DNA of 64,000 nucleotides from Acidobacteriota bacterium (GCA_963666055.2 CAXWPH010000012.1:224001-288000); one strand, 5' to 3'. Counted from the stretch's first letter, positions 27,510-49,735 are shown. Translations and numbers: made by a program. Notes: generated from the letters alone by a model not told the origin.

Positions 27510-27705
27510 CAACCACTCCACTCTTCGGTACTTTGGATCGCCTGCCATTCTACCAAGTCGATCTAACGTAATTGTTTGTAACAAGTTGTCTCAGTTGCCG
27601 CAGCCTGAAACATTGCATCGTACTCGCCGGCGCGATTGGTATTAGACTGCCCGACTGCAGTTTTCCCGCGTCGGGCCGACTCCCCTGTGCGCTTCTCATC
27701 GCGCC

Positions 27706-29812: not shown

Positions 29813-29815
29813 GTC

Positions 29816-33460: not shown

Positions 33461-36400
33461 ATGATCCGACCCCGCATCACGAATGGCCTCTGGAGACTCC
33501 TCCTGGTCGCGTTCGTCGCGACCCTTGGCGCCGTTGGCATCCCGGCACCAGCCGGCGGCCAAGCAGGCGGGGAAGCTTCGGCAGGCCTCGAGAGCCTGTT
33601 CGATACCGGGTTGATCTTCCAGGATCGAAACGGCGATGAGGTCGTCGACTTCGTCAATACCGGTATCGTTCTAGGCTTGGAACGCTCGGATTCCGACCTG
33701 GCCGCGGCGATCGATATCGCGGCGCGGCTCGGATTCGAGACCATGGCCATGGACATTCCGATACCCCGGAATGTGCCAGAGGGCAGCCTCGGCATCGTCG
33801 TCGGGCGCGGCGGCGCACAACGCCTCGGGCTCAGCGTACCGGCCCTCGACGAGCTAGAGCCCGGCGCCGGCCTGGTCATGCGGACCCGCTCACAAGGACA
33901 GGACTGGCTGGTGATCGCCGGAGCCGACGACGCCGGCACCCGCGCCGCCGCCGCAGCTTTTGCCGGTCGCCTGCCACACGTTGGTGCGGCCAAGGGCGCC
34001 ACGCTCGCCGACCTGACAACGGACATCGAGGCATACCTGGGCGACGAAGGGATCGTGGTGCAAGCGGTCACTGTGTCGACAATCCACGCCGAGGACAGCA
34101 ACGACGGCATCTTCTCCTCGGTAGACGTGGTCGTGCGTCTGTCCGCGTCCGACGCCGAAGGGGCGCGGACCGCCCTGATGGAGGTGCCAGCACGACGCCA
34201 AGCCAGCACCATGGAAGACGAGGATGAGGACAACGACGACGACCCATCCGAGCTGCTGTCGTACGCTGGTGTTGAGCGCCTGCACGTTGCGTTGACCGCG
34301 GCAGGCAGAGCCGCGGTCGATGTGGAGATCCTACGCGTAGAGCCGGAGGCTCCGTCACGCCCGACCCCAGCGCGTCCGGGGTCCGGCGGCAAGGACGACC
34401 TCGATCTATCGACGCTGTTCGACGCCGAGGGCTTGCTCGGAGACAGCGACAGCAACGTGATTCCCGACCGCATCGATGCGGTGCTGAGCGCCTCCGGTCC
34501 GGGTGTGGATGGAACGATCGATCTGGCTGCACGCCTCGGTCTGGAGTCGGCGGGAATCACCTTGCCTCTCGGTCGCACCCCGGATCAGATCGACAAAGCC
34601 GGGAGCGAGCCGACGCTGGTGATCATCGGGCTCGATCATCCGCTGATCGCCGACCTCGTCGACGACGGCAAGCTGGCGCCGGGGCGCGTCGAGTCGCTCG
34701 CGGCCGGTGAGGGGCTCATCGAGGTGGTGCCCAACGCCTTCGGCGACAAGCGCGCGGTGGTCGTTACCGGCGGCGACGCCGCCGGTGTGGCGCGGGCGCT
34801 ACAACAGCTGTCGGAGCACTTCCCCAACCTGTCGGAGCGCGGCCAGGATCGGTCGACGGTCGACGCGGTTGAGCTGGCGGTGTGGCAATTCCTGTCGCAA
34901 CGCAGCCCGGGAGGTCAGGCGGCCGCCGCACTCTACAAGATCGACCGCATGGTCGAGGAGCTACAGGGGAAGCAGATCGACTCCGCCGAGGTCACGGTCT
35001 CGCTCGAGAAGATCGAGCCAGGGCTGGAAGCAATCGTACGTCAACGGCTCGCACCTCTGAACGTCGCCAACCTCTCGGTGCACCTGGACGATCGCGACGT
35101 CCAGAAGGCCGCCGTGCTCAGCGAGGAGCAGATCGACATCCCGTCCGAGGTCGAAGCCTTCTGGAACCGATTCCGTTCGCAGGTTGTCCCGGGCGTGCGC
35201 CGCGGCCAGCCGGTGCGAATAGAAGCGCGGCTCAGCGAGCCGCGCGAGGTGCGCCAACGGATTGCCCAACAAGCCCGCGATCTGCTGATCGAAGCAGGAG
35301 CCGACGCGAACGCCACGGAAGTAACCGTGCTCTCGGCCTTCAAGCAGGGCTTCTCGTGGCTACGTGAGGTGATCGTACCGGAGCTCCAGCGGCTGCAGTC
35401 GGGCGGCGCCGATCAGGCCATCGGCGGCATCCGCGTGAACTTCGCCGAGACCGGTCCGCCGGAGGACTGGCCGCAGCAGGCAATGTACAACAAGGTCCGT
35501 TGGCTCAAGGAGATCTGGCCGGTCGACGAGGTCATGGCGGCCGACCTGTCGCTGGATCCGGAGCTCATCGACTTCCACATGGCACCCATCGACGCCCCTA
35601 CCTACGAGGTCGTGGTGACCTCATCGAGTGGCACCGAGCTGTTGCGACGGACGTTCGAGCCGAAGTACGTGCTGCAGCCGTACTATGAGCGCTTCGACAA
35701 CTACGAGATGGTCCGAGTCACGACCGGCTGGATCACCGCCAGCAGCGGCGGCACCACGTTGATCGACGAGCGCATCGTCACCGACATCGAGAGCTTCTGG
35801 GACCACTACCAATCGAAAACGCTGCGCGGACTCTACGACCATGTCATGCAGATACACGACGGCAACCCGCGGAGCGCCGACGCGCCGTACTTCGGTGAGC
35901 TCACCGTCGAGGTAAGCCTGAGCGAGCCCGACTATCTGCTCGGGATCGACAAGGAGTACATTTCGTCGCTCGACTCTCTGCACGAGGAGATCTACTTCCC
36001 CACCCTCTTCTTCTTCCGCATCCTGGGGCGCATGGCGCGGGGTGAGGAGCTCAGCCACATCGGGCGCGTCATCCCGATCATGCGGCCCAACAGCAGTGGC
36101 GAGGGCGGCTGGGCGAAGATCCGCCTAACCGGATTCGCCACCAGCCGACCTGCGGTGGTGATCGACTATGCCGAGGCTGACGGCACCACTGCACAGCTGC
36201 GTCGCGATATCCCTGTGGTTGCGGTGGAACGACCTAGCGCCCTCGCCGCGACCGTGCGCGCCGGGCAGCAGGGCCTCGACAGCCTGGATCTGCGGGTCAA
36301 GGTGGACTTCGAGGACGACCAACGCGCCGATCTGTTGCAACAGGCCGACGAGTTCCAGGTCGACCGCAGGGTCATGAGCGCTGCCCAGGCGACATCGATG

Positions 36401-37756
36401 ATCGACAACCTCGAGGAGCTGCGCGCCAACGACCTCTATGACAGCGAGCTCGCGTTCCATGGCCTGGGCACGATTCGCCTCGCCGCCGGGTGGGAATGGG
36501 AGATCGATCGCGACACGCAGGCGGTCGCCACGCTCGACGCCAACGGCGCGGCGGCTGCCTATCCGACCATCGCGGCACTGCTTCCGGAGGGTGGCTACAG
36601 CTACGCTGGCGAGGAGATGGTGCAGTGGGATACACCCATCCCGCCGCCCGAGGGGCACGCCATCCTGGCGCGCATGTCGACGTTTCCCGAAGCGACGATG
36701 TACTACACAGGCCGCAGCTACCTCGGCAAGGACATCTGGGCGATGCTCTTGATGCCCCCCATCGAGGCCAGCCACTGGTCTCGCTACAAGCTCACGACGC
36801 ACAAGCCGACGGTGATCTACTCGGCCCGCCAGCATGCGAATGAGGTCTCGTCGACCAGCCACGTGCTGAAGCTCGCCGAGCTGCTGTTGACCGACGAGGA
36901 GTTCAAGAAGAAGCTCCTCGATGTGAACGTGATCATTCATCCGTTCACCAACCCGGATGGGGCCCAGCTGGCCTACGACCTCTACGAGATCACCCCCGAT
37001 TTCATTCTCCACGCCGGCTACCTCGGCGCGCTCGGCCAGGATGCGACGAACGGGGCTCGCGAGGACATGCCCATATATCCGGAGTCGAAGATTCGACCGA
37101 CACTATGGAGAACCTGGCTCCCGGATATCTTCCTCAATCCGCACGGGTACCCGTCGCACGAGGTGGTGCAGCTGTTCTCGGAGTATGCCGGGTTGGTACG
37201 TCGGGGCCGCATCACCGAGCGTAACTGGAGCGTCAATCGAGGCTGGTTCATTCCCGGCTTCGGCTACCTGGACGATCCCAAATTCCCGCGCCACAAGGAC
37301 GCTGCCTTCCGTATTCGCGACTACGTCACCCGCTACATCAACGCCGCCGAGGATGTGCGGGCGATGAACGAGCGCGCCTACGACCGCTACAACCGTTACG
37401 GAAGTGACTACGAGCCCATCATCTATCGACAGGACATGACCGATGGGGTCAACGTGCAGATGCCGCTCAAAGGCGGCCGATCTGGCGAAGGCGGCGCCTT
37501 CGGAGGTGGCTTCAACCCCAAGGTGACGATCTGGAACGGCGGCACCGAGGCGCCCGACGAGACCGCCTATGGCGACTGGATGAAGATCGTCGCCACCGCC
37601 GGTCTACAGTGGGACAAGGCGATCCTCGACTACCTGTACGAGGGCGAGCACAGCGTCGACCGCAATGGCACTAGCCACTGGGGCGGTGGCGTACGGCTCT
37701 GGCTCGATCGCCCGCGCCCGCCGAAGCCCGAGGGAGAGGACGAAGAGGAGGAGTGA
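33461..37756 (+). CDS. Large secreted protein with a C-terminal M14 zinc carboxypeptidase domain
   Basis: AGGAG RBS; signal peptide; 'RQHANE' (HxxE), 'NPDG' and 'NPHG' M14 motifs. Confidence 0.85.
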   Translation: MIRPRITNGLWRLLLVAFVATLGAVGIPAPAGGQAGGEASAGLESLFDTGLIFQDRNGDEVVDFVNTGIVLGLERSDSDLAAAIDIAARLGFETMAMDIPIPRNVPEGSLGIVVGRGGAQRLGLSVPALDELEPGAGLVMRTRSQGQDWLVIAGADDAGTRAAAAAFAGRLPHVGAAKGATLADLTTDIEAYLGDEGIVVQAVTVSTIHAEDSNDGIFSSVDVVVRLSASDAEGARTALMEVPARRQASTMEDEDEDNDDDPSELLSYAGVERLHVALTAAGRAAVDVEILRVEPEAPSRPTPARPGSGGKDDLDLSTLFDAEGLLGDSDSNVIPDRIDAVLSASGPGVDGTIDLAARLGLESAGITLPLGRTPDQIDKAGSEPTLVIIGLDHPLIADLVDDGKLAPGRVESLAAGEGLIEVVPNAFGDKRAVVVTGGDAAGVARALQQLSEHFPNLSERGQDRSTVDAVELAVWQFLSQRSPGGQAAAALYKIDRMVEELQGKQIDSAEVTVSLEKIEPGLEAIVRQRLAPLNVANLSVHLDDRDVQKAAVLSEEQIDIPSEVEAFWNRFRSQVVPGVRRGQPVRIEARLSEPREVRQRIAQQARDLLIEAGADANATEVTVLSAFKQGFSWLREVIVPELQRLQSGGADQAIGGIRVNFAETGPPEDWPQQAMYNKVRWLKEIWPVDEVMAADLSLDPELIDFHMAPIDAPTYEVVVTSSSGTELLRRTFEPKYVLQPYYERFDNYEMVRVTTGWITASSGGTTLIDERIVTDIESFWDHYQSKTLRGLYDHVMQIHDGNPRSADAPYFGELTVEVSLSEPDYLLGIDKEYISSLDSLHEEIYFPTLFFFRILGRMARGEELSHIGRVIPIMRPNSSGEGGWAKIRLTGFATSRPAVVIDYAEADGTTAQLRRDIPVVAVERPSALAATVRAGQQGLDSLDLRVKVDFEDDQRADLLQQADEFQVDRRVMSAAQATSMIDNLEELRANDLYDSELAFHGLGTIRLAAGWEWEIDRDTQAVATLDANGAAAAYPTIAALLPEGGYSYAGEEMVQWDTPIPPPEGHAILARMSTFPEATMYYTGRSYLGKDIWAMLLMPPIEASHWSRYKLTTHKPTVIYSARQHANEVSSTSHVLKLAELLLTDEEFKKKLLDVNVIIHPFTNPDGAQLAYDLYEITPDFILHAGYLGALGQDATNGAREDMPIYPESKIRPTLWRTWLPDIFLNPHGYPSHEVVQLFSEYAGLVRRGRITERNWSVNRGWFIPGFGYLDDPKFPRHKDAAFRIRDYVTRYINAAEDVRAMNERAYDRYNRYGSDYEPIIYRQDMTDGVNVQMPLKGGRSGEGGAFGGGFNPKVTIWNGGTEAPDETAYGDWMKIVATAGLQWDKAILDYLYEGEHSVDRNGTSHWGGGVRLWLDRPRPPKPEGEDEEEE

Positions 37757-37804: not shown

Positions 37805-39130
37805 CTAACAGGCCGACGGCAGCGTCTCGAGGGCTCCCAGCACCTGCGCGGTGATCTCGACTACCTGATCCAACTCGCTGTCGGAGATGACGAACGGCGG
37901 GCCGAACAGGATCACGTCGCCGTCGGTGCCGTTGACCATGCCGGTTCCCGGATAGACCAGTAGGCCCTCCGCCTTGCACGCCGAGAGCACGCGCTCGGTA
38001 ACCTGAGAAGATCGTGGAAAGGGCTCGCGGGTGTCGCGATCAGCGACCAGCTCAACCCCTACGAGCAGGCCACGGCCGCGCACTTCACCCACGTACGGGT
38101 TGTTCGACAATTGCTCCACGAGCAGGGATTTGAGGCGTTCTCCCTTGTCGCGCGACTGCGCCACCAGGTCGCCAACCAGCAGACGCTCGATCACCGCCAC
38201 GCCGACCGCGGCGCCGACGGCATGGTGTGAGTAGGTGAAGCCGTGCACAAAACCACCTTCATACAGTGCGGCCGCCACGCGCCCGCTGGCGACCGTCAGC
38301 CCGAGTGGCCAGTAGCCCGACGAGCACCCCTTGCCGCTGGCGATGAGATCAGGCTGCACATCCCAGTGGTCGACACCGAACCACGTCCCCGTTCTACCGA
38401 AGCCGGTCATTACCTCGTCGGCAATGAGCAGGACGCCGTGGCGCCGGCAGACCTCGGCAGTCGCCAGCCAGTAGTCATCCGGCGGCACGCTGGCACCGAG
38501 CGTCGCCCCACCGATCGGTTCGGCGATGAAGGCCGCAACCGTATCGGCGCCCTCCTCGGTAATGGCCCGGTCGAGCGCCGCCGCGTGCGCCGCGCCGCAG
38601 GCACGCGGATGCGTCGGCATCGGGCAGCGATACTCGTAAACCGCCGGTACGTGGATGGCGCTGCCGAGCCAAGGTAGGTACGGGGCGCGCAGCGGCGCGC
38701 GACCGCTGACGGCGAGCGCCGCGCGCGTGTTGCCGTGGTACGAGCCCCAGCGACTGATGATCTTGTGCCGACCATCTTGTCCATTGGCCAGGTGGAAGGC
38801 CCGCGCCATCTTGAAGGCTGTTTCTATCGCCTCCGAGCCCCCCGACACGGGGTAGATCGACGGCGACTCCATCGGCAACAACGGGGCCAGCTTCTCCCCC
38901 AGCTCCTCGAGAGCGGCGGTGGTGAACTCGGTGCCGTGTACGTACGACACGCGTTCGGCCTGCTCCAGCATGGCGCGCCGGATCTCGGGCACGCCATGGC
39001 CGACGTTCACCACCACGGCGCCGCCGGCGGCGTCGAGATAGCGGTTGCCGTGCTCGTCAGTGATCCAAACACCCTCGGCAGCGACCGCCCTCGGCATGCC
39101 CGCGGGCGCCCGTCGGAAGATGTGGCTCAT
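37805..39130 (-). CDS. Class III PLP aminotransferase (omega/beta-amino acid type)
   Basis: 'YLDAAGGA', 'SGGSEA', 'SYHG', 'DEVMTGFGRTG', 'SGKG' and 'HGFTY'. Confidence 0.92.
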   Translation of the reverse strand: MSHIFRRAPAGMPRAVAAEGVWITDEHGNRYLDAAGGAVVVNVGHGVPEIRRAMLEQAERVSYVHGTEFTTAALEELGEKLAPLLPMESPSIYPVSGGSEAIETAFKMARAFHLANGQDGRHKIISRWGSYHGNTRAALAVSGRAPLRAPYLPWLGSAIHVPAVYEYRCPMPTHPRACGAAHAAALDRAITEEGADTVAAFIAEPIGGATLGASVPPDDYWLATAEVCRRHGVLLIADEVMTGFGRTGTWFGVDHWDVQPDLIASGKGCSSGYWPLGLTVASGRVAAALYEGGFVHGFTYSHHAVGAAVGVAVIERLLVGDLVAQSRDKGERLKSLLVEQLSNNPYVGEVRGRGLLVGVELVADRDTREPFPRSSQVTERVLSACKAEGLLVYPGTGMVNGTDGDVILFGPPFVISDSELDQVVEITAQVLGALETLPSAC

Positions 39131-39909
39131 CGCGTATAGATCCCGTCGGTATCGAGCTCCTCGCGGATCAGCCGTAACTCCTCGGCGGTGGGCGCAGGAG
39201 CTTCGCGCAGATCGTCAGCTACCTTCATCTCCCAGCCGGTCTTCTCGCGCACCTCGTCCAGCGACACGCCAGGGTGCAGCGAGGTGAGCTCCATCTCGCC
39301 GGTCTGCGCGTCGAAGCCATACTCGCCGAGATCGGTGATGACCACCTGCGGCCCGCTCCCGAGCCAGCCACGGGCGCGCTCGACCTCTGGATCGGGATTG
39401 TGTCCCGGCGAGGTCTGGAAGCTCAGCTGCTGCACGAACGAACGCCGTCTCTGCGGCATGATGATGAAGACGCGCCGGGCGTTGATGGCGATCTCACAAG
39501 CGCCTCCCGAGCCGGGCAGACGCACCTTGGGCTCCTCGTAGTCGCCAATGACGGTGCTGTTGAGGTTGCCGTAACGGTCGATTTGGGCCCCCTGCAGGAA
39601 GCCCACATCGATGAGGCCGGCCTGCAGGTAGAAGGCGAAGAGCTCGAACATGCTGGTCGCCGCCGTCGCCCCGGTGACCAGAGTCGGATCCCCGATCGAC
39701 AGCGGCAGCCGCGCCGGCGCGGCGCCGAACACGCCGGCCTCGTACACCATCTGGATATCGGGCGACACCGTACGCTTGGCGAGGTTCACCGCGATGTTCG
39801 GCATACCCACGCCCACAAAGCAAATCCTCTCTCCCTCGAGAGCGTGCGCCGAGCGCACGATCATCATCTCCTTGCGCGAGAAACCGAGCTCCGGCTGCGC
39901 GACGCTCAC
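39127..39909 (-). CDS. catJ: CoA-transferase beta subunit (3-oxoadipate/glutaconate type)
   Basis: 'VYEAG', 'LPLSIGD' and 'GAQIDRYGNLNSTVIGDY...RLPGSGGA'. Confidence 0.8.
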   Translation of the reverse strand: MSVAQPELGFSRKEMMIVRSAHALEGERICFVGVGMPNIAVNLAKRTVSPDIQMVYEAGVFGAAPARLPLSIGDPTLVTGATAATSMFELFAFYLQAGLIDVGFLQGAQIDRYGNLNSTVIGDYEEPKVRLPGSGGACEIAINARRVFIIMPQRRRSFVQQLSFQTSPGHNPDPEVERARGWLGSGPQVVITDLGEYGFDAQTGEMELTSLHPGVSLDEVREKTGWEMKVADDLREAPAPTAEELRLIREELDTDGIYTR

Positions 39910-40823
39910 GCGTACTCTCCGTAGTCAACCTCACCGGAAAGTGCGGGGCCTGTCGGGCGTAGGCGATCCCAGTAGGCGGCACCGAACTTCTCCACGTAGT
40001 CGGCATGGCACGACAGGTCGTAGACCCACTCCCGGAGCCAGGCGTCGAGGCTATCGGCGTGGCGCGCAATCGTGTCCCACTTCACGTAGAAATCATTGTC
40101 GCGATCGTAGTGACCTTGAACATAGGAGGGGTGACAGCCGAAAGGCTCGACCACGACCGCGTCTACCTTGATGCCAGGGATCACCGTGCGGTTGGGATCG
40201 CGACGTACCGTTTCCTCGCCAACCAGCTCCTCGACCACGAGGATGACGCGGTCAGCGCCAAATGCTGCCTCCTTCTGGCAACCGAGCAGGCCCCAGATCT
40301 GTGCGTTGCCCTCAGCGTCGGCACGCTGCGCGTGGATGATCGCGACGTCTGCGTTCAGCGGCGGCACGGCAGCGATCCGACCGCTGCCAAAGGGGTCGTC
40401 GAGCCAGCGGATCTGATCGTTCACCGACGGAATGTCGGACTCCTCGTACGAGCGCAGCGGCATGAACGGCAGGCGCGAGGCCCCTGCCATGTAGCGGCAC
40501 ACCATGCCGAAGTGGCTGTACTCCTCGATCTCGAGGGGCGCCGGGTCAGCCCTCTCTACACGACGGCGAATAGCATGCAGCGACCCGACGCCAGGGTTGC
40601 CTAACCACGAGAAAATCAGTTTGCTGGCCACACCGGCGGCGATCATCTGGTCGTAGGTCACATCGGGGGTCATGCGCGCCAGGGTCAGATCGCGCTTGCG
40701 CTGTCGGATGATCTCGTGCCCGGCCGCAAAACAGATGAGGTGGGTGAACCCCTCGATCGCCACCGTGTCGCTATCGCGCACGAGATCGCGCACGGCGTCC
40801 TGCATCGAAACCACCTTGCCCAC
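39906..40823 (-). CDS. catI: CoA-transferase alpha subunit (3-oxoadipate/glutaconate type)
   Basis: 'EGFTHLI..AAGHEIIRQ', 'RMTPD..YDQMI', 'GNPGVGSLH' and 'EYSH' match the CatI-type pattern. Confidence 0.8.
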   Translation of the reverse strand: MGKVVSMQDAVRDLVRDSDTVAIEGFTHLICFAAGHEIIRQRKRDLTLARMTPDVTYDQMIAAGVASKLIFSWLGNPGVGSLHAIRRRVERADPAPLEIEEYSHFGMVCRYMAGASRLPFMPLRSYEESDIPSVNDQIRWLDDPFGSGRIAAVPPLNADVAIIHAQRADAEGNAQIWGLLGCQKEAAFGADRVILVVEELVGEETVRRDPNRTVIPGIKVDAVVVEPFGCHPSYVQGHYDRDNDFYVKWDTIARHADSLDAWLREWVYDLSCHADYVEKFGAAYWDRLRPTGPALSGEVDYGEYA

Positions 40824-40831
40824 TGTCGCCC

Positions 40832-42172
40832 CTACCCGCCGACCGCGCCGAGGACCTCTTCGAACACCTCGAGACCCCGGTCGGCCTGCTGTCGCGTGAA
40901 GACCAGCGGTGGCGTGATGCGGATCACGTTGTCGCCGCAGCCCAGCATCAGCAAGCCGCGCTTGAAGGCCTCTTGTTCGATCCGGCCCATCACGTCATGG
41001 CTCGGGAACTCGACGCCGATCATCAGGCCCAGCCCGCGCAGATCGCGAATCACGTCGTGCTTCGACTGCAGCTGGCGCAGCCCGTCCATCAGATAGGCCC
41101 CGACCTCGGCGGCGTTCTGCTTGAGGCCGTTCTCGATCAGATCGATGCTGGCAAGCGCCGCCGCGCACGGCGTCGGCGATCCCCCGTAGGTGGAGCCGTG
41201 CGCACCGAACTCCCAGGACATCAGATCCTCGCGCGCGATCATCGCGCCCAGCGGCATGCCGCTGGCGATGCCCTTGCCCGACAGGACGATGTCGGGTTCG
41301 ACGCCGAAGTGCTGGATGGCCCAGGTCTTACCGGTACGGCCCATGCCCGACTGCACCTCGTCGGCCACCAGCAGGATGCCGTGCTGGTCGCACAGCCGCC
41401 GCAGCTCGGTGAGGAATTCCTGCGGCGGGAAGATGTAGCCGCCTTCGCCCTGCACCGGCTCGACGAAGATCGCCGCCACCTCGTCGGCTGCCAGGACGTG
41501 CTTGAAAAGCACCTTCTCGATGTAATCGATACTCGCGAGTCCATCATCGCCGGCGGCCAGGTCCAATCCCCAACCGTAGCCGTCGCCGTACGGGGCGTGG
41601 TAGACGCCGGGAAGCAGCGGTCCGAAGCGGCGGTGATACTTCGCTTTCGAGGCCGTCAACGACACGCTGCCGTACGAGCGACCGTGGAAGGCACCGTAGA
41701 ACGCAATCACGTTGTGCCTGCCGGTGGCGTAGCGTGCCAGCTTCAGGGCCGCCTCCACGGCCTCGGTACCCGAGTTGGTGAGGAAGGTGCGCGCCCGGCC
41801 CGAAAACGGCGAGATCTCGTCGAGCCGCTCGCAAACTTCAGCGTAGATTGGCAGGTAGAAGTCCGACGCCGAGTAGTGCAGCAACTCGGCAGCCTGCTTC
41901 TGGATCGCCTCGACCACTGCCGGGTGCGAATGGCCCGTGGCATTGACCGCGATGCCGGCGTTTAGGTCGAGAAACAGGTTGCCGTCGACGTCCTCGACCA
42001 CCGAGCCGCTCCCCCGTCGGGGGGCAAACGGATACGCTCGGGGCAGCGACGGCGACGTCACCCGCTGGTCACGCTCGATGATCGCCTGCGCCTTGGGGCC
42101 GGGCGGCGAGACGACGATCTGCGGAGCCGCTACTCCGGCGAGATCTGCGATGGAAAGCTCAGTGCTGCTCAT
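40832..42172 (-). CDS. Class III aminotransferase (GABA/ornithine aminotransferase-like)
   Basis: ATG 42172 overlaps the ALDH stop; 'PPGPKA', 'NSGTEAVE', 'FHGRS', 'EPVQGEGGY' and 'DEVQSGMGRTG'. Confidence 0.92.
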   Translation of the reverse strand: MSSTELSIADLAGVAAPQIVVSPPGPKAQAIIERDQRVTSPSLPRAYPFAPRRGSGSVVEDVDGNLFLDLNAGIAVNATGHSHPAVVEAIQKQAAELLHYSASDFYLPIYAEVCERLDEISPFSGRARTFLTNSGTEAVEAALKLARYATGRHNVIAFYGAFHGRSYGSVSLTASKAKYHRRFGPLLPGVYHAPYGDGYGWGLDLAAGDDGLASIDYIEKVLFKHVLAADEVAAIFVEPVQGEGGYIFPPQEFLTELRRLCDQHGILLVADEVQSGMGRTGKTWAIQHFGVEPDIVLSGKGIASGMPLGAMIAREDLMSWEFGAHGSTYGGSPTPCAAALASIDLIENGLKQNAAEVGAYLMDGLRQLQSKHDVIRDLRGLGLMIGVEFPSHDVMGRIEQEAFKRGLLMLGCGDNVIRITPPLVFTRQQADRGLEVFEEVLGAVGG

Positions 42173-43728
42173 CCGATCACCGTCCTGGATTGTTCGCGCA
42201 TGTACTGGAGCACGTAGTAGGGGCCACCCGCCGCCTTGCCCATCGTCCCGGAACCCTTCCAGCCGCCGAACGGCTGGGCGCCCGGCCACGCGCCGGTGGT
42301 GGCTCCGGAGGAACGATTGATGTAAATGACGCCGGCCTCGATCTCGTTGCAGAAGCGGTCGATCTCGGCCTGATCTTCGCTGAACAAACCCGCCGTGAGC
42401 CCGTATTCGGTGTCGTTGGCAAGCCCGATCGCCTCGTCGAGCGAGTCCACCGCATCGACCGCCACGAACGGCACGAACAGCTCGCGCTTCCACAGCCAAG
42501 AGTCCCGCGGCACGTGTACCACCGTCGGCTGCACGTAGGTGCCGCGCGCAAAATCACCGTCAGTAATTACCTCCCCGCCGGCGATCACCTCTCCCGTCCG
42601 TCTGGCCTCATCGGCAGCCTCCTCAAACGTGTCGACAGCCGCCTGGTTGATCACCGGTCCAAGAAACACACCCTGTTCAAGCGGGTTGCCGACCACCAGG
42701 GCCTCGGTCTTCTCCTTGAGCTTGGCGACGAACTCGTCGTACAGCTCACGCTCGACGTACACCCGCGAGTTCGCCGAGCACTTCTGGCCCTGAAGGCCGA
42801 ATGCACTGCGCCATACGCCGTCGGTAGCCTTGTCGAGATCGGCATGCTTGGTGACGATCGTCGGGTTCTTGCCGCCCATCTCGCAGATAGCCGGCTTGGG
42901 GTAGTCCCTCGCAAACTCCCTGTAGATCTTCATCCCGACTTCATAGGAGCCAGTAAACGTCAGGCCCTTTACATCCGGGTGGGTGGCGATGCCATCGCCG
43001 ACCACCTCACCTGACCCTGACAGCAACTGGAACGCGCCAGGTGGCATGCCGGCCTCGCGATAGGCCTCGTAGAGCATGTGTCCGGTCGCCGCCCCCTGCG
43101 AGGCGGGCTTGAACACCACCGTATTCCCGGCTGCCAGCGCCGCCGACGACGGCCCAGCCGCCAGCGCCATCGGAAAGTTAAAGGGGCTGATGACCCCCCA
43201 GACGCCATAGGGGCGCATGATGTCGTAGTAGTCGCCGGCCTCGCCTAGCGGCTGCATCGGCACCCTGAAGCCCTCGGCTTGGATCATCGCGTGGGTATTC
43301 CAGCGAATGAGGTCGGCCGACTCCTGCACGTCGCCGACCGCCTCGAGTCGGCTCTTCCCCACTTCCATCGCCATCAGCGCCGACATCATGTAGCGCTGTT
43401 CCTCGATGATCTTGGCGGCCCGGTCGAGGATCTCGGCGCGCTTCTGGTATCCCAGTGCGTCCCAGGCCAGCGCATAGTCCTTGGCGGCGGCGATGGCATC
43501 GCTTACGTCCTGCGGGGTCGCCCTGGCGAACTCGCCGAGCACGATGTCGGAGTCGATCGGGGACACCTCGGTGTGCCAGCCATCACCCTCGCGAGCTTCG
43601 CCGTTCACGTAGAACGGATGTCGCTGGCCGAGCCACGCCTTGGCGTCCTCGATGCCGCGCTCGTAGTCGGCGTGCATGTTCGGGTCGGCTGCGAGCGTCG
43701 CGTAGGTAACGCGGAATCCTTCGGCCAT
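42169..43728 (-). CDS. Aldehyde dehydrogenase of the 1-pyrroline-5-carboxylate dehydrogenase (RocA/PutA-like) branch
   Basis: 'ISPFNFP', 'EMGGKN', 'GQKCSA', 'YGLTAG' and 'YINR...TTGA..GAQPFGGWKGSG'. Confidence 0.9.
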   Translation of the reverse strand: MAEGFRVTYATLAADPNMHADYERGIEDAKAWLGQRHPFYVNGEAREGDGWHTEVSPIDSDIVLGEFARATPQDVSDAIAAAKDYALAWDALGYQKRAEILDRAAKIIEEQRYMMSALMAMEVGKSRLEAVGDVQESADLIRWNTHAMIQAEGFRVPMQPLGEAGDYYDIMRPYGVWGVISPFNFPMALAAGPSSAALAAGNTVVFKPASQGAATGHMLYEAYREAGMPPGAFQLLSGSGEVVGDGIATHPDVKGLTFTGSYEVGMKIYREFARDYPKPAICEMGGKNPTIVTKHADLDKATDGVWRSAFGLQGQKCSANSRVYVERELYDEFVAKLKEKTEALVVGNPLEQGVFLGPVINQAAVDTFEEAADEARRTGEVIAGGEVITDGDFARGTYVQPTVVHVPRDSWLWKRELFVPFVAVDAVDSLDEAIGLANDTEYGLTAGLFSEDQAEIDRFCNEIEAGVIYINRSSGATTGAWPGAQPFGGWKGSGTMGKAAGGPYYVLQYMREQSRTVIG

Positions 43729-44041
43729 CGAGGTCGCCTCTTGGTGGATCGCTATGGCGGATCGTCTCGTCCCGTCGCGTGATCGATCTCAGGCGGACAT
43801 CGTATTCCTGTCGCCAAGTCGCCGCATCCCGCTCGGCGCGGAGAATCGGTCAGCGGTTGCCCAAGCTCGCGGTGCGATGGGATGATAGATAAGTGGCCTC
43901 CACCTTTGCCGACGTCGTGACGGCGGCACGTGGACTCATATGGCGGCTAGGCTCATATCTCGACCCGCTCGCCGGTGACCTGCATGTGGTTCAACCTGAA
44001 CGTCCTTCACCAGCCCGACGTCGACGCCTGATGACGTGACC

Positions 44042-44061
44042 GCGCCCCCCTAGGGGGGCGC
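44042..44061. promoter_or_regulatory. Perfect 20-bp palindrome upstream of the kamA-like gene
   Basis: GCGCCCCCCTAGGGGGGCGC; function unknown. Confidence 0.4.
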
Positions 44062-44105
44062 CTGTTAGTCCCATCGGCCCCCAAGGTGAAGCAAGGATCC
44101 CAAGC

Positions 44106-45506
44106 ATGTCGTCCAGCACCCTGAAGACCACTGCAGTAGAAGGCGGCGACACCGCGCATCTCAAGGAACCCGTCGATGCGGCGGCGCTCGGCCATCGCGA
44201 TCTGGTTCGCGGCGAGTTCTGGCGCGATGTCCCGGCATACAGCGACGTCTCGGAGCCCCAGTTCCTCGACCACCTATGGCAGGCAAGGAACTCGATCACG
44301 ACCCCGAAGAAACTGCTGGCGGCGCTCAGCGGGCTGGTGAGCGACACGTTCATCGAGGACGTACGCAACGGCTTCGAGCGCTCGCCAATGAGCGTGCGGG
44401 TTTCTCCCTACCTTCTCAGCCTGATCAACTGGGAGGACCCTTACGAGGACCCGCTGCGCATCCAGTTCATCCCGGTCGGATCGCGGTTGTTGCCCGACCA
44501 TCCGAAGCTCGAGCTGGACTCGCTGCACGAGCAGGCCGATGCGCCGGTGCCCGGCCTGACGCACCGATACCCCGACAAGGCACTGTTTCTCGCTCTCGAT
44601 ACCTGTCCGGTGTACTGCCGATTCTGCACCCGAAGCTACGCGGTGGGCATCGACACCGAGGAAGTCGAGAAGGTCCAGCTCAAAGTCAACGCCGAGCGCT
44701 GGGATCTGATGTTCGAGTACGTGCGATCGCGACCTGAGCTCGAGGACATCGTCATCTCCGGTGGCGATGCCTACAACCTGCGTGCCGAGCAGATCCGCAC
44801 CATCGGCATAACGCTGCTGGAGATCGATCATACCCGCCGCATGCGATTCGCCACCAAAGGGCCGGCGGTGATGCCGCAGAAGCTGCTCACCGACCACGCC
44901 TGGGTCGCGGCGCTCACCGATGTGCACGAACGAGGGCGACAGCTAGGTAAGGAGGTGGTACTCCACACGCATTTCAACACCGGGCGCGAGATCACCGGCA
45001 TCACCCACGATGCGATGAACGTGCTGTTCGAGCGCGGCATGACGTCGCGCAACCAGAGCGTCATGCAGCGCGGGGTGAACGACAAGGTCACCACCATGCA
45101 GCGGCTGGTCAAACGGCTCAGCTACATCAACGTGCACCCCTACTACGTGTACATGCACGATCTGGTGAAGGGCGTCGAGGACCTACGCACCACCGTCGTC
45201 ACCGGCATCGCCGTGGAGAAGCACGTGCGTGGCGTGACGGCGGGATTCAACACCCCCACCGTGGTCGTCGACGCGCCCGGCGGCGGCGGTAAACGCGACA
45301 TCCACTCGTACGAGCACTACGACCCGGACACCGGCATCAGCGTCTACACGGCGCCGTCGGTCAAGCATGGGTACTTCCTGTATTTCGACCCCATCCCCAT
45401 GCTCCCCGTCGAGAGCCAGCGGCGCTGGTCTGACCCCGTCCAGCAGCGTCGGATGATCCGCGACGCCCTCGACGCGGCGAGCGCCAACCGGGGACAACAT
45501 GCGTAG
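44106..45506 (+). CDS. kamA: KamA-family radical SAM/PLP 2,3-aminomutase (lysine 2,3-aminomutase-like)
   Basis: 'LTHRYPDK', CPVYCRFC (CxxxCxxC), 'ISGGD', 'HFN' and 'DAPGGGGK' (PLP lysine). Confidence 0.9.
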   Translation: MSSSTLKTTAVEGGDTAHLKEPVDAAALGHRDLVRGEFWRDVPAYSDVSEPQFLDHLWQARNSITTPKKLLAALSGLVSDTFIEDVRNGFERSPMSVRVSPYLLSLINWEDPYEDPLRIQFIPVGSRLLPDHPKLELDSLHEQADAPVPGLTHRYPDKALFLALDTCPVYCRFCTRSYAVGIDTEEVEKVQLKVNAERWDLMFEYVRSRPELEDIVISGGDAYNLRAEQIRTIGITLLEIDHTRRMRFATKGPAVMPQKLLTDHAWVAALTDVHERGRQLGKEVVLHTHFNTGREITGITHDAMNVLFERGMTSRNQSVMQRGVNDKVTTMQRLVKRLSYINVHPYYVYMHDLVKGVEDLRTTVVTGIAVEKHVRGVTAGFNTPTVVVDAPGGGGKRDIHSYEHYDPDTGISVYTAPSVKHGYFLYFDPIPMLPVESQRRWSDPVQQRRMIRDALDAASANRGQHA

Positions 45507-46620
45507 GTCGGCGGACCAGCGCGGCCGCCTGCTGATGGCTGGTCTGTTGTCTTGTCTGGCGCTCGCCTGTGGTCCTACCCCCGTGGTCGAGACGCCGGCG
45601 TTGGAACCGTCGGCGCAGGTCGATGCCTTGTTCGCCCACTACACCGAGGGCATTCAGCCGGGCGCTGCGGTCATGGTCATCCGCGACGCAGAGGTAGTGC
45701 ACAGCGCAGGCTATGGCTATGCGGAGATCGGGCACAGGGTGCACATCGGCACCGACTCGACGTTCCGACTCGGTTCCTTCTCCAAGCAATTCACCGCCAT
45801 GGCGATCATGCTGCTGGCCGAGAGCGGTGACTTGGACTACGACGATCCGATCGCCCGTTACCTGCCCGAGCTGGCCCGCTACGGCGAGAACATCACGATT
45901 CGACACCTCCTGCACCACCAAGGCGGCCTGCCGGGGTACTACAGCGACATCGACACTTCGGCTGGGATGCCCTCCAACGCAGACGCGCTAGCTCAGCTAG
46001 CGAGCAAGGGCGAGCCGGTGTTCCCGCCGGGGGAGCGCTACGAGTACAGCAACCCCGGATACGACATGCTGGCCGTGGTGGTCGAGGCAGCTTCGGGGAT
46101 GAGTTTCGCCGACTTCATGCGTGAGCGTATCTTCGCTCCGCTGGGAATGGACGACTCCCTGATTCACGATCACACTGGCCCGCACATCGCCCGTCGCGTC
46201 GTCGGTTACGACCCGGACGGCGATGGGTACGTGGAGAACGACCAGCACCCACTCAACGGCATCGTCGGCTCGGGCAGCATGTTCTCCACCCTCGAGGACC
46301 TCTACAAATGGGACCAGGCACTCTACACAGGGGTGCTGGTGAGCAGCGCAACCCTGCGGGAAGCGTTCACGCCCGCGAAACTCAACAACGGAGAGGGCAC
46401 CGGCTACGGCTTCGGCTTCACGATCGGCGAGTACCGTGGCCACCAGCGCATCGCGCACGGTGGCAGCTGGGTGGGCTTCCGGACGCACATCGCACGACAT
46501 CCGGAGATCGGGCTGACGGTGATCCTGCTTTCGAACCGCGGCGACTTCGACAGCAGCGACTACGTCGACCCGGTGATCGATGCCTATCTGGGCGCTTACT
46601 CGACTCCGTCGGCCGAGTAG
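45499..46620 (+). CDS. Serine hydrolase of the beta-lactamase/D-aminopeptidase family, probable lipoprotein
   Basis: SFSK (SxxK), YSN, 'LLHHQGGL' and 'HGGSW'; LALAC lipobox. Confidence 0.9.
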   Translation: MRRSADQRGRLLMAGLLSCLALACGPTPVVETPALEPSAQVDALFAHYTEGIQPGAAVMVIRDAEVVHSAGYGYAEIGHRVHIGTDSTFRLGSFSKQFTAMAIMLLAESGDLDYDDPIARYLPELARYGENITIRHLLHHQGGLPGYYSDIDTSAGMPSNADALAQLASKGEPVFPPGERYEYSNPGYDMLAVVVEAASGMSFADFMRERIFAPLGMDDSLIHDHTGPHIARRVVGYDPDGDGYVENDQHPLNGIVGSGSMFSTLEDLYKWDQALYTGVLVSSATLREAFTPAKLNNGEGTGYGFGFTIGEYRGHQRIAHGGSWVGFRTHIARHPEIGLTVILLSNRGDFDSSDYVDPVIDAYLGAYSTPSAE

Positions 46621-47105: not shown

Positions 47106-49580
47106 CTAGCTTCCCGGCGTCAGCTCGATTCGCATCGCCGTCGCCGCCTCGATCTTATCCCGAGAATAGAAGACTGGATGGAACCGATCGTTCGCCCAGT
47201 CCTCGAAGAGGTTGCGGTAGAAGGGTGAGTCGGGATCGCCACTCTGCCCGGGCGTGTTCATCCCGACGCCACGATCCCAGTCGCCGGTATCGATGATGAT
47301 CCGGAACGACGCCCCCGACGTCTGGTTGTCGGCACCACTGGTTTGGTTGACGGTGTAGCTATAGCCACCCCGCGGGTGCGGGCCGACCTCGAGCCGGGCC
47401 CGCATTGGCTCGCTCACCGCTGCCCCCAACGGATGGCGCAGGGTGACGTGCTTGTAGTCGGGCTGGCCGTAGACCCAGTTGGCAGGGTCGGGGCCGAGTT
47501 TCTGAGTCAACGCGTCGACCGTCGACTCCAGAGCATCCAGGAGGATCTCGTCGCGGGCACGTAGGGGGTCGGCTCCGAGCGTACCGGGGGGGACCATGAT
47601 GGTGTCGATCGTCTTCTTCAACGACAGGGTCATTCGAGCTGCCGGCGGCACTAGAGCGGCGTTGACGCTGCGGCGCAACTGCGCTTCCCAGGCCACGTAC
47701 AGCCCCGCGGCGGTCGACCGCTTGTCGACCACGTAGTCCCATTCGAGCAGAAGCTGCCGGGCCCACTCGATGCGATCGTCGCCGGCCTCGATCTCCTCGA
47801 GCAGCGGCACCAGTTGCCGCGCCGGGATCGACAGCTCGTCGGTCTGCAGACGCATCATGTCGGCGATCGAGAAGCGTGTGCCGCTGCCGAGCACCTCGAC
47901 CAACCGCAGCCAGCGATACGGGTCCGACCAGCTGAAGCCGATCGCGTCCATGTACTCGTAGTCGCGTGGCACCAGGTCGTTGTTGGCGGTGGCGAAGTAG
48001 CCCTCGGGTGGGTTCACGACATGCGGCTTGGCCTTGATCGGCAGGTAGCCGTCCCATTCATAGCGGCCATCACCGGGGACCGGTACCAGACCGCTCCAGT
48101 TGCGACGGATAGGAGCGATTCCCACGGCTTGCCAGCCGATGGTCCCGTCACGCCCTGCCCAGACCATGTTCTCGCCTGGGATGTTGGAGTAGTTGCTCGC
48201 CTCGACGAACTCCTCCCAGGTCGTTGCCTGGTCCATGCGCAGCGAGCCCAGGTACGGCGACCCGCCGATCTCCATCCAGCCGGCGCGCACTGCGTACGCC
48301 AGATTGCGGCCGCGATCCTCGAAGACCACCGGGCCGTGGCGCGTGTACTTGAGCTCGGCGCGGTGCGCGCCTTGTCCCTTCACCGGAATCTCCTCGTCCA
48401 GCACCGTCATCGGCTGCCATTCGCCGCGGTAGCGGTACTCGTTGCCGTTGGCCGGGTTGGTCTCGTAGACGTAGAGATCCTCGGCGTCGGTCGAGAACAC
48501 CGTCAGTCCCCAGGCGCCGTGGGCGTTGTGCCCGATCGAAATGCCCGGCAGGCTCGGCTCGCCGCCGCCGATGACGTCCCAGCCGGGCCCCACGAGGTGC
48601 ACCCAGTAGCGCAACGACGGAGCTGCCTGCACGCGGTGTGGGTCGTTCGCCATGATCGGATAGCCGCTCTCGGAGCGGGAGCCGCTGACCACCCAGTTGT
48701 TGGAGCCGATGTCCAGCTCCGGGTCGGAGCCTAGCGCCGCGGAGGAGGCTTCCGCGGCGCGCTCGAGCCGGGCGAAAGACTCGGCATCGCCGCGATGCCT
48801 GGCGATGATGTCCTCGGGCCCGAAGCGTACGCGGCCACGGAAGGCGTTGTAGATACCGAGGATGTCGTCAGAGAGCGCCCCGCCATCGATCGCCGGGTCG
48901 AGCTCGAGCAGAGGGTCACCAGGCCCGTAGGTGCCGAGATCCTTCACTTTCGCCGCGCCCAGCTCGGCAACCAGCCGACCCGTGCGTAGCTCCGCACCAA
49001 TGTTGCCGAGAAGCCCCTGATGCCGTGAGATAACGATCTCCGGCGTCCAGGTGCCGGGGGTGATGCCGAGCAACTCGAACTCGATCGGCAACAGGCTCGG
49101 GTCCCGCCGGGTTTGCTCGACATAGGCGTTGATACCGTCCACGTAGGCACCGATGATCGCCACCCCGTTGCGGTGATAGTGGCTCAGCTCCTGCTCCAGG
49201 TTGCGCCGGAACTTGAACAGCCGCGCTCCCCGATCGCGCTCGATCTCACGCGGCCCGAGGATCTCTGCCACCGTCCCCGTCGCCTGACGGCGCCAGAGCT
49301 CGAGCTGAAACAGCCGATCACGCGCGGCGTTCCAGCCCTGCGCGAAGAACAGGTCGTGCTCGGTGTCAGCATAGATATGGCTGATACCCCACCGGTCGAC
49401 GAGGATCTCGACTGACTGGTCGAGGCCGGTGATCTCGAATCGGGTAGATTCCTGTGCGAGAAGTCCGGATGCCGGGATCGTCAGACCCAGCAGCAACCCG
49501 AAGGCGATCCCGGCGCGACAGGCGACTATCCGAAGCATCGAGCCAAGGGCGCAACTGAAAGGCGCGCGACTGACGGTCAT
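47106..49580 (-). CDS. Penicillin acylase family Ntn-hydrolase
   Basis: 'DRWGISHIYA', 'GSNNW' autocatalytic Ser, 'ANDPH' and 'PGQSGDP'. Confidence 0.93.
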   Translation of the reverse strand: MTVSRAPFSCALGSMLRIVACRAGIAFGLLLGLTIPASGLLAQESTRFEITGLDQSVEILVDRWGISHIYADTEHDLFFAQGWNAARDRLFQLELWRRQATGTVAEILGPREIERDRGARLFKFRRNLEQELSHYHRNGVAIIGAYVDGINAYVEQTRRDPSLLPIEFELLGITPGTWTPEIVISRHQGLLGNIGAELRTGRLVAELGAAKVKDLGTYGPGDPLLELDPAIDGGALSDDILGIYNAFRGRVRFGPEDIIARHRGDAESFARLERAAEASSAALGSDPELDIGSNNWVVSGSRSESGYPIMANDPHRVQAAPSLRYWVHLVGPGWDVIGGGEPSLPGISIGHNAHGAWGLTVFSTDAEDLYVYETNPANGNEYRYRGEWQPMTVLDEEIPVKGQGAHRAELKYTRHGPVVFEDRGRNLAYAVRAGWMEIGGSPYLGSLRMDQATTWEEFVEASNYSNIPGENMVWAGRDGTIGWQAVGIAPIRRNWSGLVPVPGDGRYEWDGYLPIKAKPHVVNPPEGYFATANNDLVPRDYEYMDAIGFSWSDPYRWLRLVEVLGSGTRFSIADMMRLQTDELSIPARQLVPLLEEIEAGDDRIEWARQLLLEWDYVVDKRSTAAGLYVAWEAQLRRSVNAALVPPAARMTLSLKKTIDTIMVPPGTLGADPLRARDEILLDALESTVDALTQKLGPDPANWVYGQPDYKHVTLRHPLGAAVSEPMRARLEVGPHPRGGYSYTVNQTSGADNQTSGASFRIIIDTGDWDRGVGMNTPGQSGDPDSPFYRNLFEDWANDRFHPVFYSRDKIEAATAMRIELTPGS

Positions 49581-49735
49581 GGGTCCTCCCGGATCTGGCA
49601 AGTCGATCGGCACGCGCGTCGAGCGCGACCGGCGGCAGCGTACTCAACTGGTAGCTACCTCACAAGATGCGCGGGCGGACAAGAGCGGCCAGGAGCGGCC
49701 AAGTCCGGCCAGTGCAGAGCCCAGTGTTCCTTCAG

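Follow-up and report, generated by a model that had tools for sequence, protein, structure and literature searches.

A five-gene operon beside a KamA-family aminomutase gene in Acidobacteriota: a candidate oxidative route from beta-lysine to 3-oxoadipyl-CoA

What does a lysine 2,3-aminomutase-like gene do beside an operon of two transaminases, an aldehyde dehydrogenase (ALDH) and a coenzyme A (CoA)-transferase? The question is raised by positions 37805 to 45506 of a 64,000-nucleotide stretch of the genome of a soil-type acidobacterium (GCA_963666055.2, CAXWPH010000012.1:224001-288000), hereafter the window, whose G+C content is about 64-65%. Several routes of lysine breakdown are known. To our knowledge, just one route by way of beta-lysine has been defined genetically, a route characteristic of anaerobes that requires a B12-dependent mutase, and we know of no maker of beta-lysine other than KamA-type enzymes. 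We consider it a serious possibility, though still short of probable, that the operon oxidises beta-lysine to 3-oxoadipyl-CoA and that the neighbouring KamA supplies the beta-lysine in this genus.

The operon lies on the minus strand and runs from 43728 to 37805. As read from open reading frames and family models, it encodes in order an ALDH (42169-43728; PF00171), a class III aminotransferase of the ornithine/4-aminobutyrate (GABA) type (aminotransferase A; 40832-42172, 446 amino acids), the alpha (CoTa; 39906-40823, 305 amino acids) and beta (CoTb; 39127-39909, 260 amino acids) subunits of a CoA-transferase, and a second class III aminotransferase, of the omega-transaminase type (aminotransferase B; 37805-39130, 441 amino acids; PF00202). 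Aminotransferase A starts at the ATG at 42172 and not at the TTG of a 555-amino-acid reading frame. The ALDH stop and the aminotransferase A start share an ATGA, an 8-nt gap and two 4-nt overlaps follow, and the five genes form one translationally coupled unit. The KamA gene (44106-45506, plus strand, 466 amino acids) diverges from the operon across 377 bp. A preliminary description of the locus had given this tightly coupled, divergent arrangement and had called the ALDH a relative of 1-pyrroline-5-carboxylate (P5C) dehydrogenases, aminotransferase A an ornithine/GABA-type enzyme and aminotransferase B a second class III enzyme; all of this was confirmed.

Both CoA-transferase subunits match PF01144 (69.9 and 113.1 bits). 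Their earlier label, CatIJ-type, did not hold: the pcaI/pcaJ-type models TIGR02428 and TIGR02429 fail (alpha 23.3 bits for a cut-off of 128.5, beta 42.1 for 243.55), and the nearest solved structure for both subunits is the glutaconate CoA-transferase 1poi, GctAB of Acidaminococcus fermentans (E 6e-47 for 1poi_A and 7e-43 for 1poi_B), which they also resemble in size (about 305 and 260 amino acids). The catalytic glutamate is kept, since the Glu of the beta-subunit motif YEAG aligns with that of VESG in GctB (1poi_B), and the alpha subunit is GctA-like by sequence. The enzyme thus appears to belong to the GctAB-like branch of family I CoA-transferases. GctAB belongs to glutamate fermentation through 2-hydroxyglutarate; unlike there, no dehydratase or decarboxylase partners were seen in Pfam scans of the window.

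The gene contexts of its relatives point to a C6 substrate. In protocatechuate clusters, the PcaIJ slot is occupied by CoTa relatives at 52-56% identity. G208, a complete acidobacterial genome, has the order CoTa-CoTb-PcaF-PcaH-PcaG-PcaB-PcaD, the order of locus L145 (PcaF 685 bits, cut-off 597), with PcaF, PcaH, PcaG and PcaD above their equivalog cut-offs. The same pattern was observed at L142-L144, on S. meliloti pSymB and on annotated plasmids of Rubrobacter (R. indicoceani) and S. rimosus. The alpha subunits of these last three clusters are 53-56% identical to that of the window, the RefSeq record of S. rimosus names the second subunit 3-oxoadipate--succinyl-CoA transferase, and S. meliloti pcaIJ has reportedly been characterised experimentally. 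These PcaIJ-PcaF systems share with the window a two-subunit, GctAB-like family I CoA-transferase with its catalytic glutamate, but the window has two transaminases and an ALDH in place of pcaHGBCD. No PcaF thiolase or protocatechuate genes adjoin the operon, and the ring-cleavage dioxygenase family PF00775 is absent from the window and from the genome, which is 95.7% complete and was searched in full for this and the other absences reported below; the lack of aromatic ring-cleavage genes, first noted in the window, thus extends to the genome.

CoTa trees (an IQ-TREE quick tree of 63 sequences and a FastTree of 110 rows) place the window subunit in a clade separate from those of pca clusters, with one exception. 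The metagenome contig L222 carries PcaD, PcaHG and PcaB followed by a CoTa 66% identical to that of the window, and this CoTa falls inside a cassette clade, next to L126; the IQ-TREE tree unites the remaining pca-context sequences in one clade (SH-aLRT 100), which stands beside two cassette clades in an order that the tree leaves open. L126 is an acidobacterial locus with a homologous cassette, in the order aminotransferase A, second transaminase, ALDH, CoTa, CoTb, and there a PcaF-like thiolase overlaps the CoTb stop; it matches 3-oxoadipyl-CoA thiolase models best, narrowly missing their cut-offs (569 bits for 605 and 560 for 597). CoTa relatives also occur in other contexts, in Natrialba and in Streptomyces sp. 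HUAS 31, and among the papers listed by a literature search none named both pcaIJ and glutaconate CoA-transferase. CoTa and CoTb are accordingly predicted to form a 3-oxoadipate:succinyl-CoA transferase, and the part of our proposal that leads from the cassette to 3-oxoadipyl-CoA is reasonably grounded in comparative evidence.

We then considered the enzymes that would deliver 3-oxoadipate. The best NCBIfam and PDB matches of the ALDH are P5C dehydrogenases, all of the models being below cut-off: the top two reach 413 bits for a cut-off of 648 and 399.6 for 659.65 (TIGR01237), and the equivalogs TIGR01236 (252.7 for 613.6) and PutA (318.8 for 747) fail as well. The PDB matches are 3rjl, PutA and 3qan (E 1e-86 to 1e-90; best 3rjl, 2e-90), and succinate-semialdehyde dehydrogenase models score 298 bits, below the 413 of the P5C dehydrogenases. 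A true P5C dehydrogenase lies elsewhere in the genome (G000:C15:756439-758022; TIGR01236 790.9 bits, above 613.6), as does a proline dehydrogenase. Since the cassette ALDH fails the P5C dehydrogenase models while the genome has a true one, it is a divergent paralogue. With 585 bits, aminotransferase A exceeds the NF004426 cut-off of 552, and the PDB entry closest to it is 7vno (E 1e-120), which we take to be P. horikoshii PH1423. According to a table in PMC9986279, PH1423 is an ornithine delta-aminotransferase that accepts lysine and omega-amino acids as well. Aminotransferase B comes closest to PRK07483 among the models, under cut-off (450 bits for 485), and to 3i4j among PDB entries (E 5e-81).

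If 3-oxoadipate is the end product of two transaminations and an aldehyde oxidation, this suggests 3,6-diaminohexanoate as the starting compound, hence beta-lysine as the substrate. In the proposed pathway, every substrate of which is one that we infer, KamA would convert L-lysine to beta-lysine (3,6-diaminohexanoate). Aminotransferase A, as a predicted beta-lysine 6-aminotransferase, would remove the C6 amino group, and the resulting 3-amino-6-oxohexanoate would cyclise to 1-pyrroline-5-acetate, the one-carbon homologue of P5C. The ALDH, as a predicted 3-amino-6-oxohexanoate (1-pyrroline-5-acetate) dehydrogenase, would oxidise this pair to 3-aminoadipate, which aminotransferase B, a predicted 3-aminoadipate (beta) transaminase, would convert to 3-oxoadipate. 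The CoA-transferase would then yield 3-oxoadipyl-CoA, and a thiolase encoded elsewhere would cleave this, giving succinyl-CoA plus acetyl-CoA. The enzyme subtypes would be those of the set that leads from ornithine through P5C to glutamate, moved by one carbon. Indeed, RocD-RocA uses the same two enzyme families, with a terminal transamination three carbons from the amino-bearing carbon, a cyclic imine and an NAD-dependent ALDH; it differs in that the window ALDH fails all P5C dehydrogenase models, with the true enzyme encoded elsewhere, and in that the proposed substrate has one extra CH2. Within the literature searched, we found no paper on a route from beta-lysine through 3-aminoadipate to 3-oxoadipate.

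The KamA-family protein, a radical S-adenosylmethionine (SAM)/pyridoxal phosphate (PLP) 2,3-aminomutase, passes the family model TIGR00238 (220 bits, cut-off 199.2) and fails the equivalog for the lysine 2,3-aminomutase AblA (TIGR03820, 250.7 for 525.4). It fails as well the models for glutamate (193 for 650) and arginine (185 for 600) aminomutases and for EpmB (151 for 369). It aligns with the C. subterminale lysine 2,3-aminomutase 2a5h (E 3e-65), including the radical-SAM motif CxxxCxxC (CPVYCRFC), the PLP lysine in VVVDAPGGGGK and the motif YVYMHD. Both aspartates at 2a5h positions 293 and 330, which we take to bind the epsilon-amino group of lysine, are kept; a literature search on this pair returned nothing relevant. 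On a Fulvitalea plasmid, an orthologue with 57% identity precedes a symporter gene and then an annotated ablB (beta-lysine acetyltransferase) gene, so that the window's KamA clade seems to make beta-lysine. We therefore predict, from motifs and homology, that the window KamA is a lysine 2,3-aminomutase; a profile search found it to be the only KamA-family gene of the genome.

If KamA makes beta-lysine, which enzymes of this genome could use it? The acetyltransferase AblB (TIGR03827) reaches at best 21.3 bits for a cut-off of 205.1, with a model that passed in two of 14 genomes, and no AblB homologues were found in the window or beside 80 KamA loci. No EpmA/GenX (TIGR00462) was found above cut-off in the genome, where the best match is a 536-amino-acid frame at 247.1 bits for 286.9. 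The 5,6-aminomutase subunit KamD (PF09043) had no match in the genome, but its model matched in none of the 14 genomes. Of the earlier claim that the window lacks kamDE and epmA, the EpmA part thus stands genome-wide, and the KamD part carries the limit of its model. Since the genome has neither AblB nor EpmA above cut-off and no KamD match, elimination favours a link from KamA to the cassette. Compared with lysine fermentation in Clostridium and Fusobacterium (kamA, kamDE, kdd, kce, kal), the first step, lysine 2,3-aminomutase, would match, but the predicted route continues from beta-lysine by transamination and oxidation and not by a B12-dependent 5,6-aminomutase. The genome also holds two BKACE (PF05853, kce-family) genes, at G000:C12:294106-294975, about 6 kb past the window end, and at G000:C15:106319-107179, neither of which adjoins kamA.

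Partial precedents for a beta-lysine substrate were found in two places. On the Rhizobium sp. CB3171 plasmid (L264, 12538-26380), a KamA (48% identity), a 3-hydroxyacyl-CoA dehydrogenase, a P5C dehydrogenase-like ALDH (44%), a LysR regulator, a class III aminotransferase, a GNAT protein and an HDAC-family deacetylase lie within 14 kb, with the ALDH 2.5 kb from KamA and no CoA-transferase. The same plasmid encodes another, shorter lysine 2,3-aminomutase 8 kb upstream. The other precedent is the B. subtilis cluster kamA-yodP-yodQ-yodR-yodS-yodT, in which YodS and YodR are presumably CoA-transferase subunits and which, we assume, includes a deacetylase. There, too, a class III aminotransferase is encoded near KamA, and it shares its nearest structure, 3I4J, with aminotransferase B, a likeness of structure matches and not of directly compared sequences. 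The cluster has an acetyltransferase and a deacetylase and no ALDH or second transaminase, whereas the window shows the reverse. According to PMC6522883, kamA (BSU19690) and yodT (BSU19740) are both SigE-controlled and YodT has 3I4J as its nearest structure; according to PMC9049628, yodP and kamA make N-epsilon-acetyl-beta-lysine, YodP being the acetyltransferase.

The distribution of the cassette was investigated in two samples. Among 401 Acidobacteriota genomes, 50 had a CoTa match (E <= 1e-20), 30 of them outside the genus at 50% identity or more, and 20 of these 30 loci were examined with tblastn. In five (L126, L134, L135, L139 and L140), the CoA-transferase is accompanied by two or more of the three other genes (the ALDH and both aminotransferases), seven have aminotransferase B alone, four are pca clusters and four have none of these. 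A sub-module of aminotransferase B and CoA-transferase, seen in seven loci as against five with more of the cassette, fits the proposed order of steps. The thiolase inside the L134 cassette is of the generic acetoacetyl-CoA type. In metagenomes, stored stretches with CoTa are estimated at about 9300; a scan with an alignment of 13 CoTa sequences gave 591 confirmed stretches, of which the best 80, many of them short contigs, were kept. All five genes are present in 18 of these 80 loci, 14 in the window order, ALDH first, and four with aminotransferase B first. The five genes thus travel together across several phyla, and the cassette is a self-contained mobile module, mostly without kamA. In the CoTa trees, the window's genus has its place among metagenome cassettes of high G+C content and not with other Acidobacteriota, which suggests that it acquired the cassette horizontally.

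The flanks of the cassette vary and often hold amide hydrolases. An S58 (DmpA/BapA family) peptidase is Pfam-confirmed beside the cassette at L126, L134, L139 and L140 and was found at eight loci by clustering; an M28 peptidase also flanks it, as does an S51 peptidase at L155. Where kamA is missing, the cassette may take up external beta-lysine or a bound form of it, a supply that the frequent amide hydrolases would fit. HDAC-family deacetylases lie downstream at L152, L155, L171 and L174, pyruvate kinase flanks the cassette at L152, L153, L159, L171 and L174, and proline dehydrogenase lies upstream at L152, L155 and L159. As a group, the high-G+C versions at L152, L155, L159, L165, L171 and L174 carry TetR, proline dehydrogenase and P5C reductase upstream and an HDAC-family deacetylase and a pyruvate kinase downstream. 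At two acidobacterial loci (L139 10469-11965 and L140 11887-13332), a flavin amine oxidase directly follows CoTa, and tblastn found no CoTb in either locus.

Is the cassette tied to kamA beyond this locus? Of the same-genus genomes, the three whose contigs are long enough to tell (G002, G003 and G004) all keep the arrangement, with a penicillin amidase, an S12 hydrolase, KamA and the cassette, together with an M14 gene in G002 and G004; G001, of the same genus, is too fragmented to show it. For KamA loci in general, we used the best 80 of 359 confirmed genome-contig loci (57-90% identity), mainly from Myxococcota, Vulcanimicrobiota/Eremiobacterota and Chthoniobacterales. One of these, L021, is an Acidobacteriota metagenome-assembled genome (MAG) of the same genus whose KamA is 90% identical to that of the window. 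Clustering of open reading frames within 4.5 kb on either side of the 80 genes gave an Lrp/AsnC regulator as the sole recurrent named neighbour (27 loci). In the 401-genome sample, KamA-family matches (E <= 1e-30) were found in 130 genomes, a tally that takes in the unpublished G071 and G166, and orthologues at 58% identity or more were confined to the genus and to G352, G372 and G376. Two Myxococcota MAGs carry a second KamA paralogue (35-36%) 7-8 kb from the orthologue and near a QueG-like gene (L019 1447-2673 and L029 3034-4353), and their genomes also carry the cassette, on another contig. On a Klebsiella pneumoniae IncFII plasmid (L267 8986-12882), genes for a 'class I tRNA ligase family protein' and an MFS transporter come after a KamA-family gene (44%); the same KamA also occurs on two other Klebsiella plasmids.

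Several results weigh against our proposal, foremost those on this linkage. Co-occurrence of operon and kamA in other genomes had been set beforehand as a test, and outside the genus the two were unlinked in every sample drawn. With L021 set aside, tblastn (E <= 1e-20, coverage >= 0.5) found aminotransferase A, aminotransferase B, CoTa or CoTb in none of the 79 KamA loci (57-76%), 38 of which extend 9 kb or more to each side, and the one ALDH near KamA, at L088, is unrelated (31% identity). Conversely, KamA is found in none of the 80 metagenome cassette loci, 22 of which extend 3 kb or more upstream and 30 that far downstream, in none of the 20 acidobacterial CoA-transferase loci, and in none of the plasmid-locus records in which it was looked for. 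When 50 genomes with KamA orthologues were searched whole, seven had a CoTa match (E <= 1e-30), five of them at 55% identity or more; the four of these five that were examined have the full cassette, and all five CoTa hits lie on contigs other than that of kamA. G352, G372 and G376 have no CoTa match. Long KamA paralogues (33-36%) in two cassette-bearing acidobacterial families (f31 and f33) do not adjoin the cassette, and their neighbours are uninformative. Conserved adjacency within one genus says little, and the translational coupling of kamA in the window is with the gene of an exported hydrolase and not with the cassette. Other adverse points concern the enzymes. The aspartate pair separates no clades, being kept by nearly all aligned family members, and is therefore a low-power test here; the nearest solved relative of the CoA-transferase uses C5 dicarboxylates; and the pcaF-like thiolase expected elsewhere in the genome was not found at PcaF grade, the best match reaching 382 bits for 597. 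Finally, proline dehydrogenase and P5C reductase upstream of some high-G+C metagenome cassettes also fit a proline or ornithine reading of the ALDH. The pathway as originally proposed is thus supported in its lower half, through the relatives in pca slots, the L126 thiolase, the ALDH paralogue, the 7vno match and the absence of known beta-lysine users, and is not supported in its link to kamA outside the genus; the case for coupling KamA to the cassette is a weak one, drawn from one genus, from chemistry and from elimination.

The cassette could instead be a route from a diamine or an omega-amino acid to a dicarboxyl-CoA, with kamA an unrelated neighbour, a reading that we consider unlikely. 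In one version, cadaverine would pass through 5-aminovalerate and glutarate to glutaryl-CoA: the diamine would be the substrate of aminotransferase B, the omega-amino acid that of aminotransferase A and glutarate that of the Gct-like transferase, and both aldehydes would fall to the ALDH. A glutaconate CoA-transferase as nearest solved structure and the rarity of kamA beside the cassette agree with this, as do the putrescine and polyamine:pyruvate transaminases among the PDB matches of aminotransferase B and the many GABA transaminases among those of aminotransferase A. The deacetylases after the cassette at four loci, the flavin amine oxidases at L139 and L140 and the generic thiolase at L134 point the same way. 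However, a single ALDH would be needed twice, and it scores 413 bits with P5C dehydrogenase models as against 298 with those of succinate-semialdehyde dehydrogenase. No acyl-CoA (glutaryl-CoA) dehydrogenase was seen among the flanking reading frames scanned, which cover part of the flanks. Moreover, the CoA-transferase is far closer to pca-context subunits (52-66% identity) than its E value with 1poi suggests for GctAB, and the thiolase that overlaps the cassette end at L126 is PcaF-like. Were the diamine route correct, the operon would be an ordinary amine-catabolism module.

A composite operon is less likely still. Here the ALDH and aminotransferase A would act like RocA and RocD, taking ornithine or proline-derived P5C to glutamate, while a different compound, a beta-amino or beta-keto acid, would be processed by aminotransferase B and the CoA-transferase. 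This would account for the best matches of the first two enzymes (P5C dehydrogenases, and ornithine, acetylornithine and GABA transaminases), for the TetR, proline dehydrogenase and P5C reductase genes upstream of several high-G+C metagenome cassettes and for the sub-module that stands alone at seven of 20 acidobacterial loci. Yet the genome already has an equivalog-passing P5C dehydrogenase (791 bits, above 614) while the cassette ALDH passes no such model, and the five genes are translationally coupled and occur together in two fixed orders at 18 of 80 metagenome loci in several phyla.

An acetyl-protected beta-lysine pathway of the Pseudomonas B4 kind (reportedly from N6-acetyl-beta-lysine to 3-keto-6-acetamidohexanoate and, by CoA-dependent cleavage, to 4-aminobutyrate and succinate), with aminotransferase B as the beta-transaminase, aminotransferase A as a GABA transaminase and the ALDH as a succinate-semialdehyde dehydrogenase, gives each cassette family a step and suits the HDAC-family deacetylases at four loci, the acetylated product of B. 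subtilis yodP-kamA and the BKACE genes, one about 6 kb beyond the window, but we judge it very improbable, as neither genome nor window has an AblB-type acetyltransferase (21 bits for 205), the ALDH resembles P5C dehydrogenase and not succinate-semialdehyde dehydrogenase, and the context-placed relatives of the CoA-transferase act, by gene context, on the dicarboxylate 3-oxoadipate. A literature search under the names of this acetamidohexanoate route returned nothing relevant.

The divergent intergenic region (43729-44105, 377 bp) has blocks kept within the genus and a perfect 20-nt palindrome at 44042-44061, made of two 10-nt G+C-rich arms with no spacer and lying some 45 nt upstream of where kamA starts. 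Three other genomes of the genus keep a stem at this site with different letters. No Rfam match was found in the kamA leader or the intergenic region, no sigma-70-like promoter match was found in the latter, and terminator-like sites at the locus are at chance level only. On its other side, kamA is followed by the gene of an S12 beta-lactamase-fold serine hydrolase (45499-46620, plus strand; PF00144), which overlaps the kamA stop by 8 nt. Its N-terminus (MRR...LLSCLALAC) resembles a lipoprotein signal, and its nearest PDB entries are 2qmi and the D-amino acid amidase 2dns. Coupling of an exported hydrolase to a cytoplasmic radical-SAM enzyme is odd; among the KamA and acidobacterial loci searched, this hydrolase adjoins kamA only in G002, G003 and G004.

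Further away, the window encodes an MttB-family methyltransferase (25986-27584, minus strand), an SSF symporter followed by hydantoinase/oxoprolinase A and B subunits (28322-33402), a 1431-amino-acid protein with M14 carboxypeptidase and S-layer-like matches (33461-37756, plus strand), a penicillin amidase (47106-49613, minus strand) and a SoxC-type sulfite dehydrogenase that passes TIGR04555 (51535-52803, plus strand). The hydantoinase-type subunits match caprolactamase subunit models best, one reaching roughly half of the cut-off and the other roughly a quarter. None of the hydantoinase A/B, M14, penicillin amidase or S12 genes was found beside the cassette in the 80 metagenome or 20 acidobacterial loci, and for this reason we do not count them as parts of it.

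Taken in its widest form, our proposal is of a B12-independent, oxidative beta-lysine pathway on a mobile five-gene cassette common in soil bacteria of several phyla, which this genus would have docked to a lysine 2,3-aminomutase to give a new, complete route for L-lysine into the beta-ketoadipate end steps; we hold this wider form to be quite possible, if somewhat less likely than not. If true, it would add a further lysine route, based on transaminases and an ALDH, enzymes common in aerobes, and would join amino-acid breakdown to the end steps of the beta-ketoadipate pathway. It would also name 1-pyrroline-5-acetate and 3-aminoadipate, metabolites without known enzymology in the literature searched, and would provide enzymes for making C6 building blocks (3-aminoadipate and 3-oxoadipate) from lysine. 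Moreover, a five-gene cassette whose estimated occurrence runs to thousands of metagenome stretches would gain a function.

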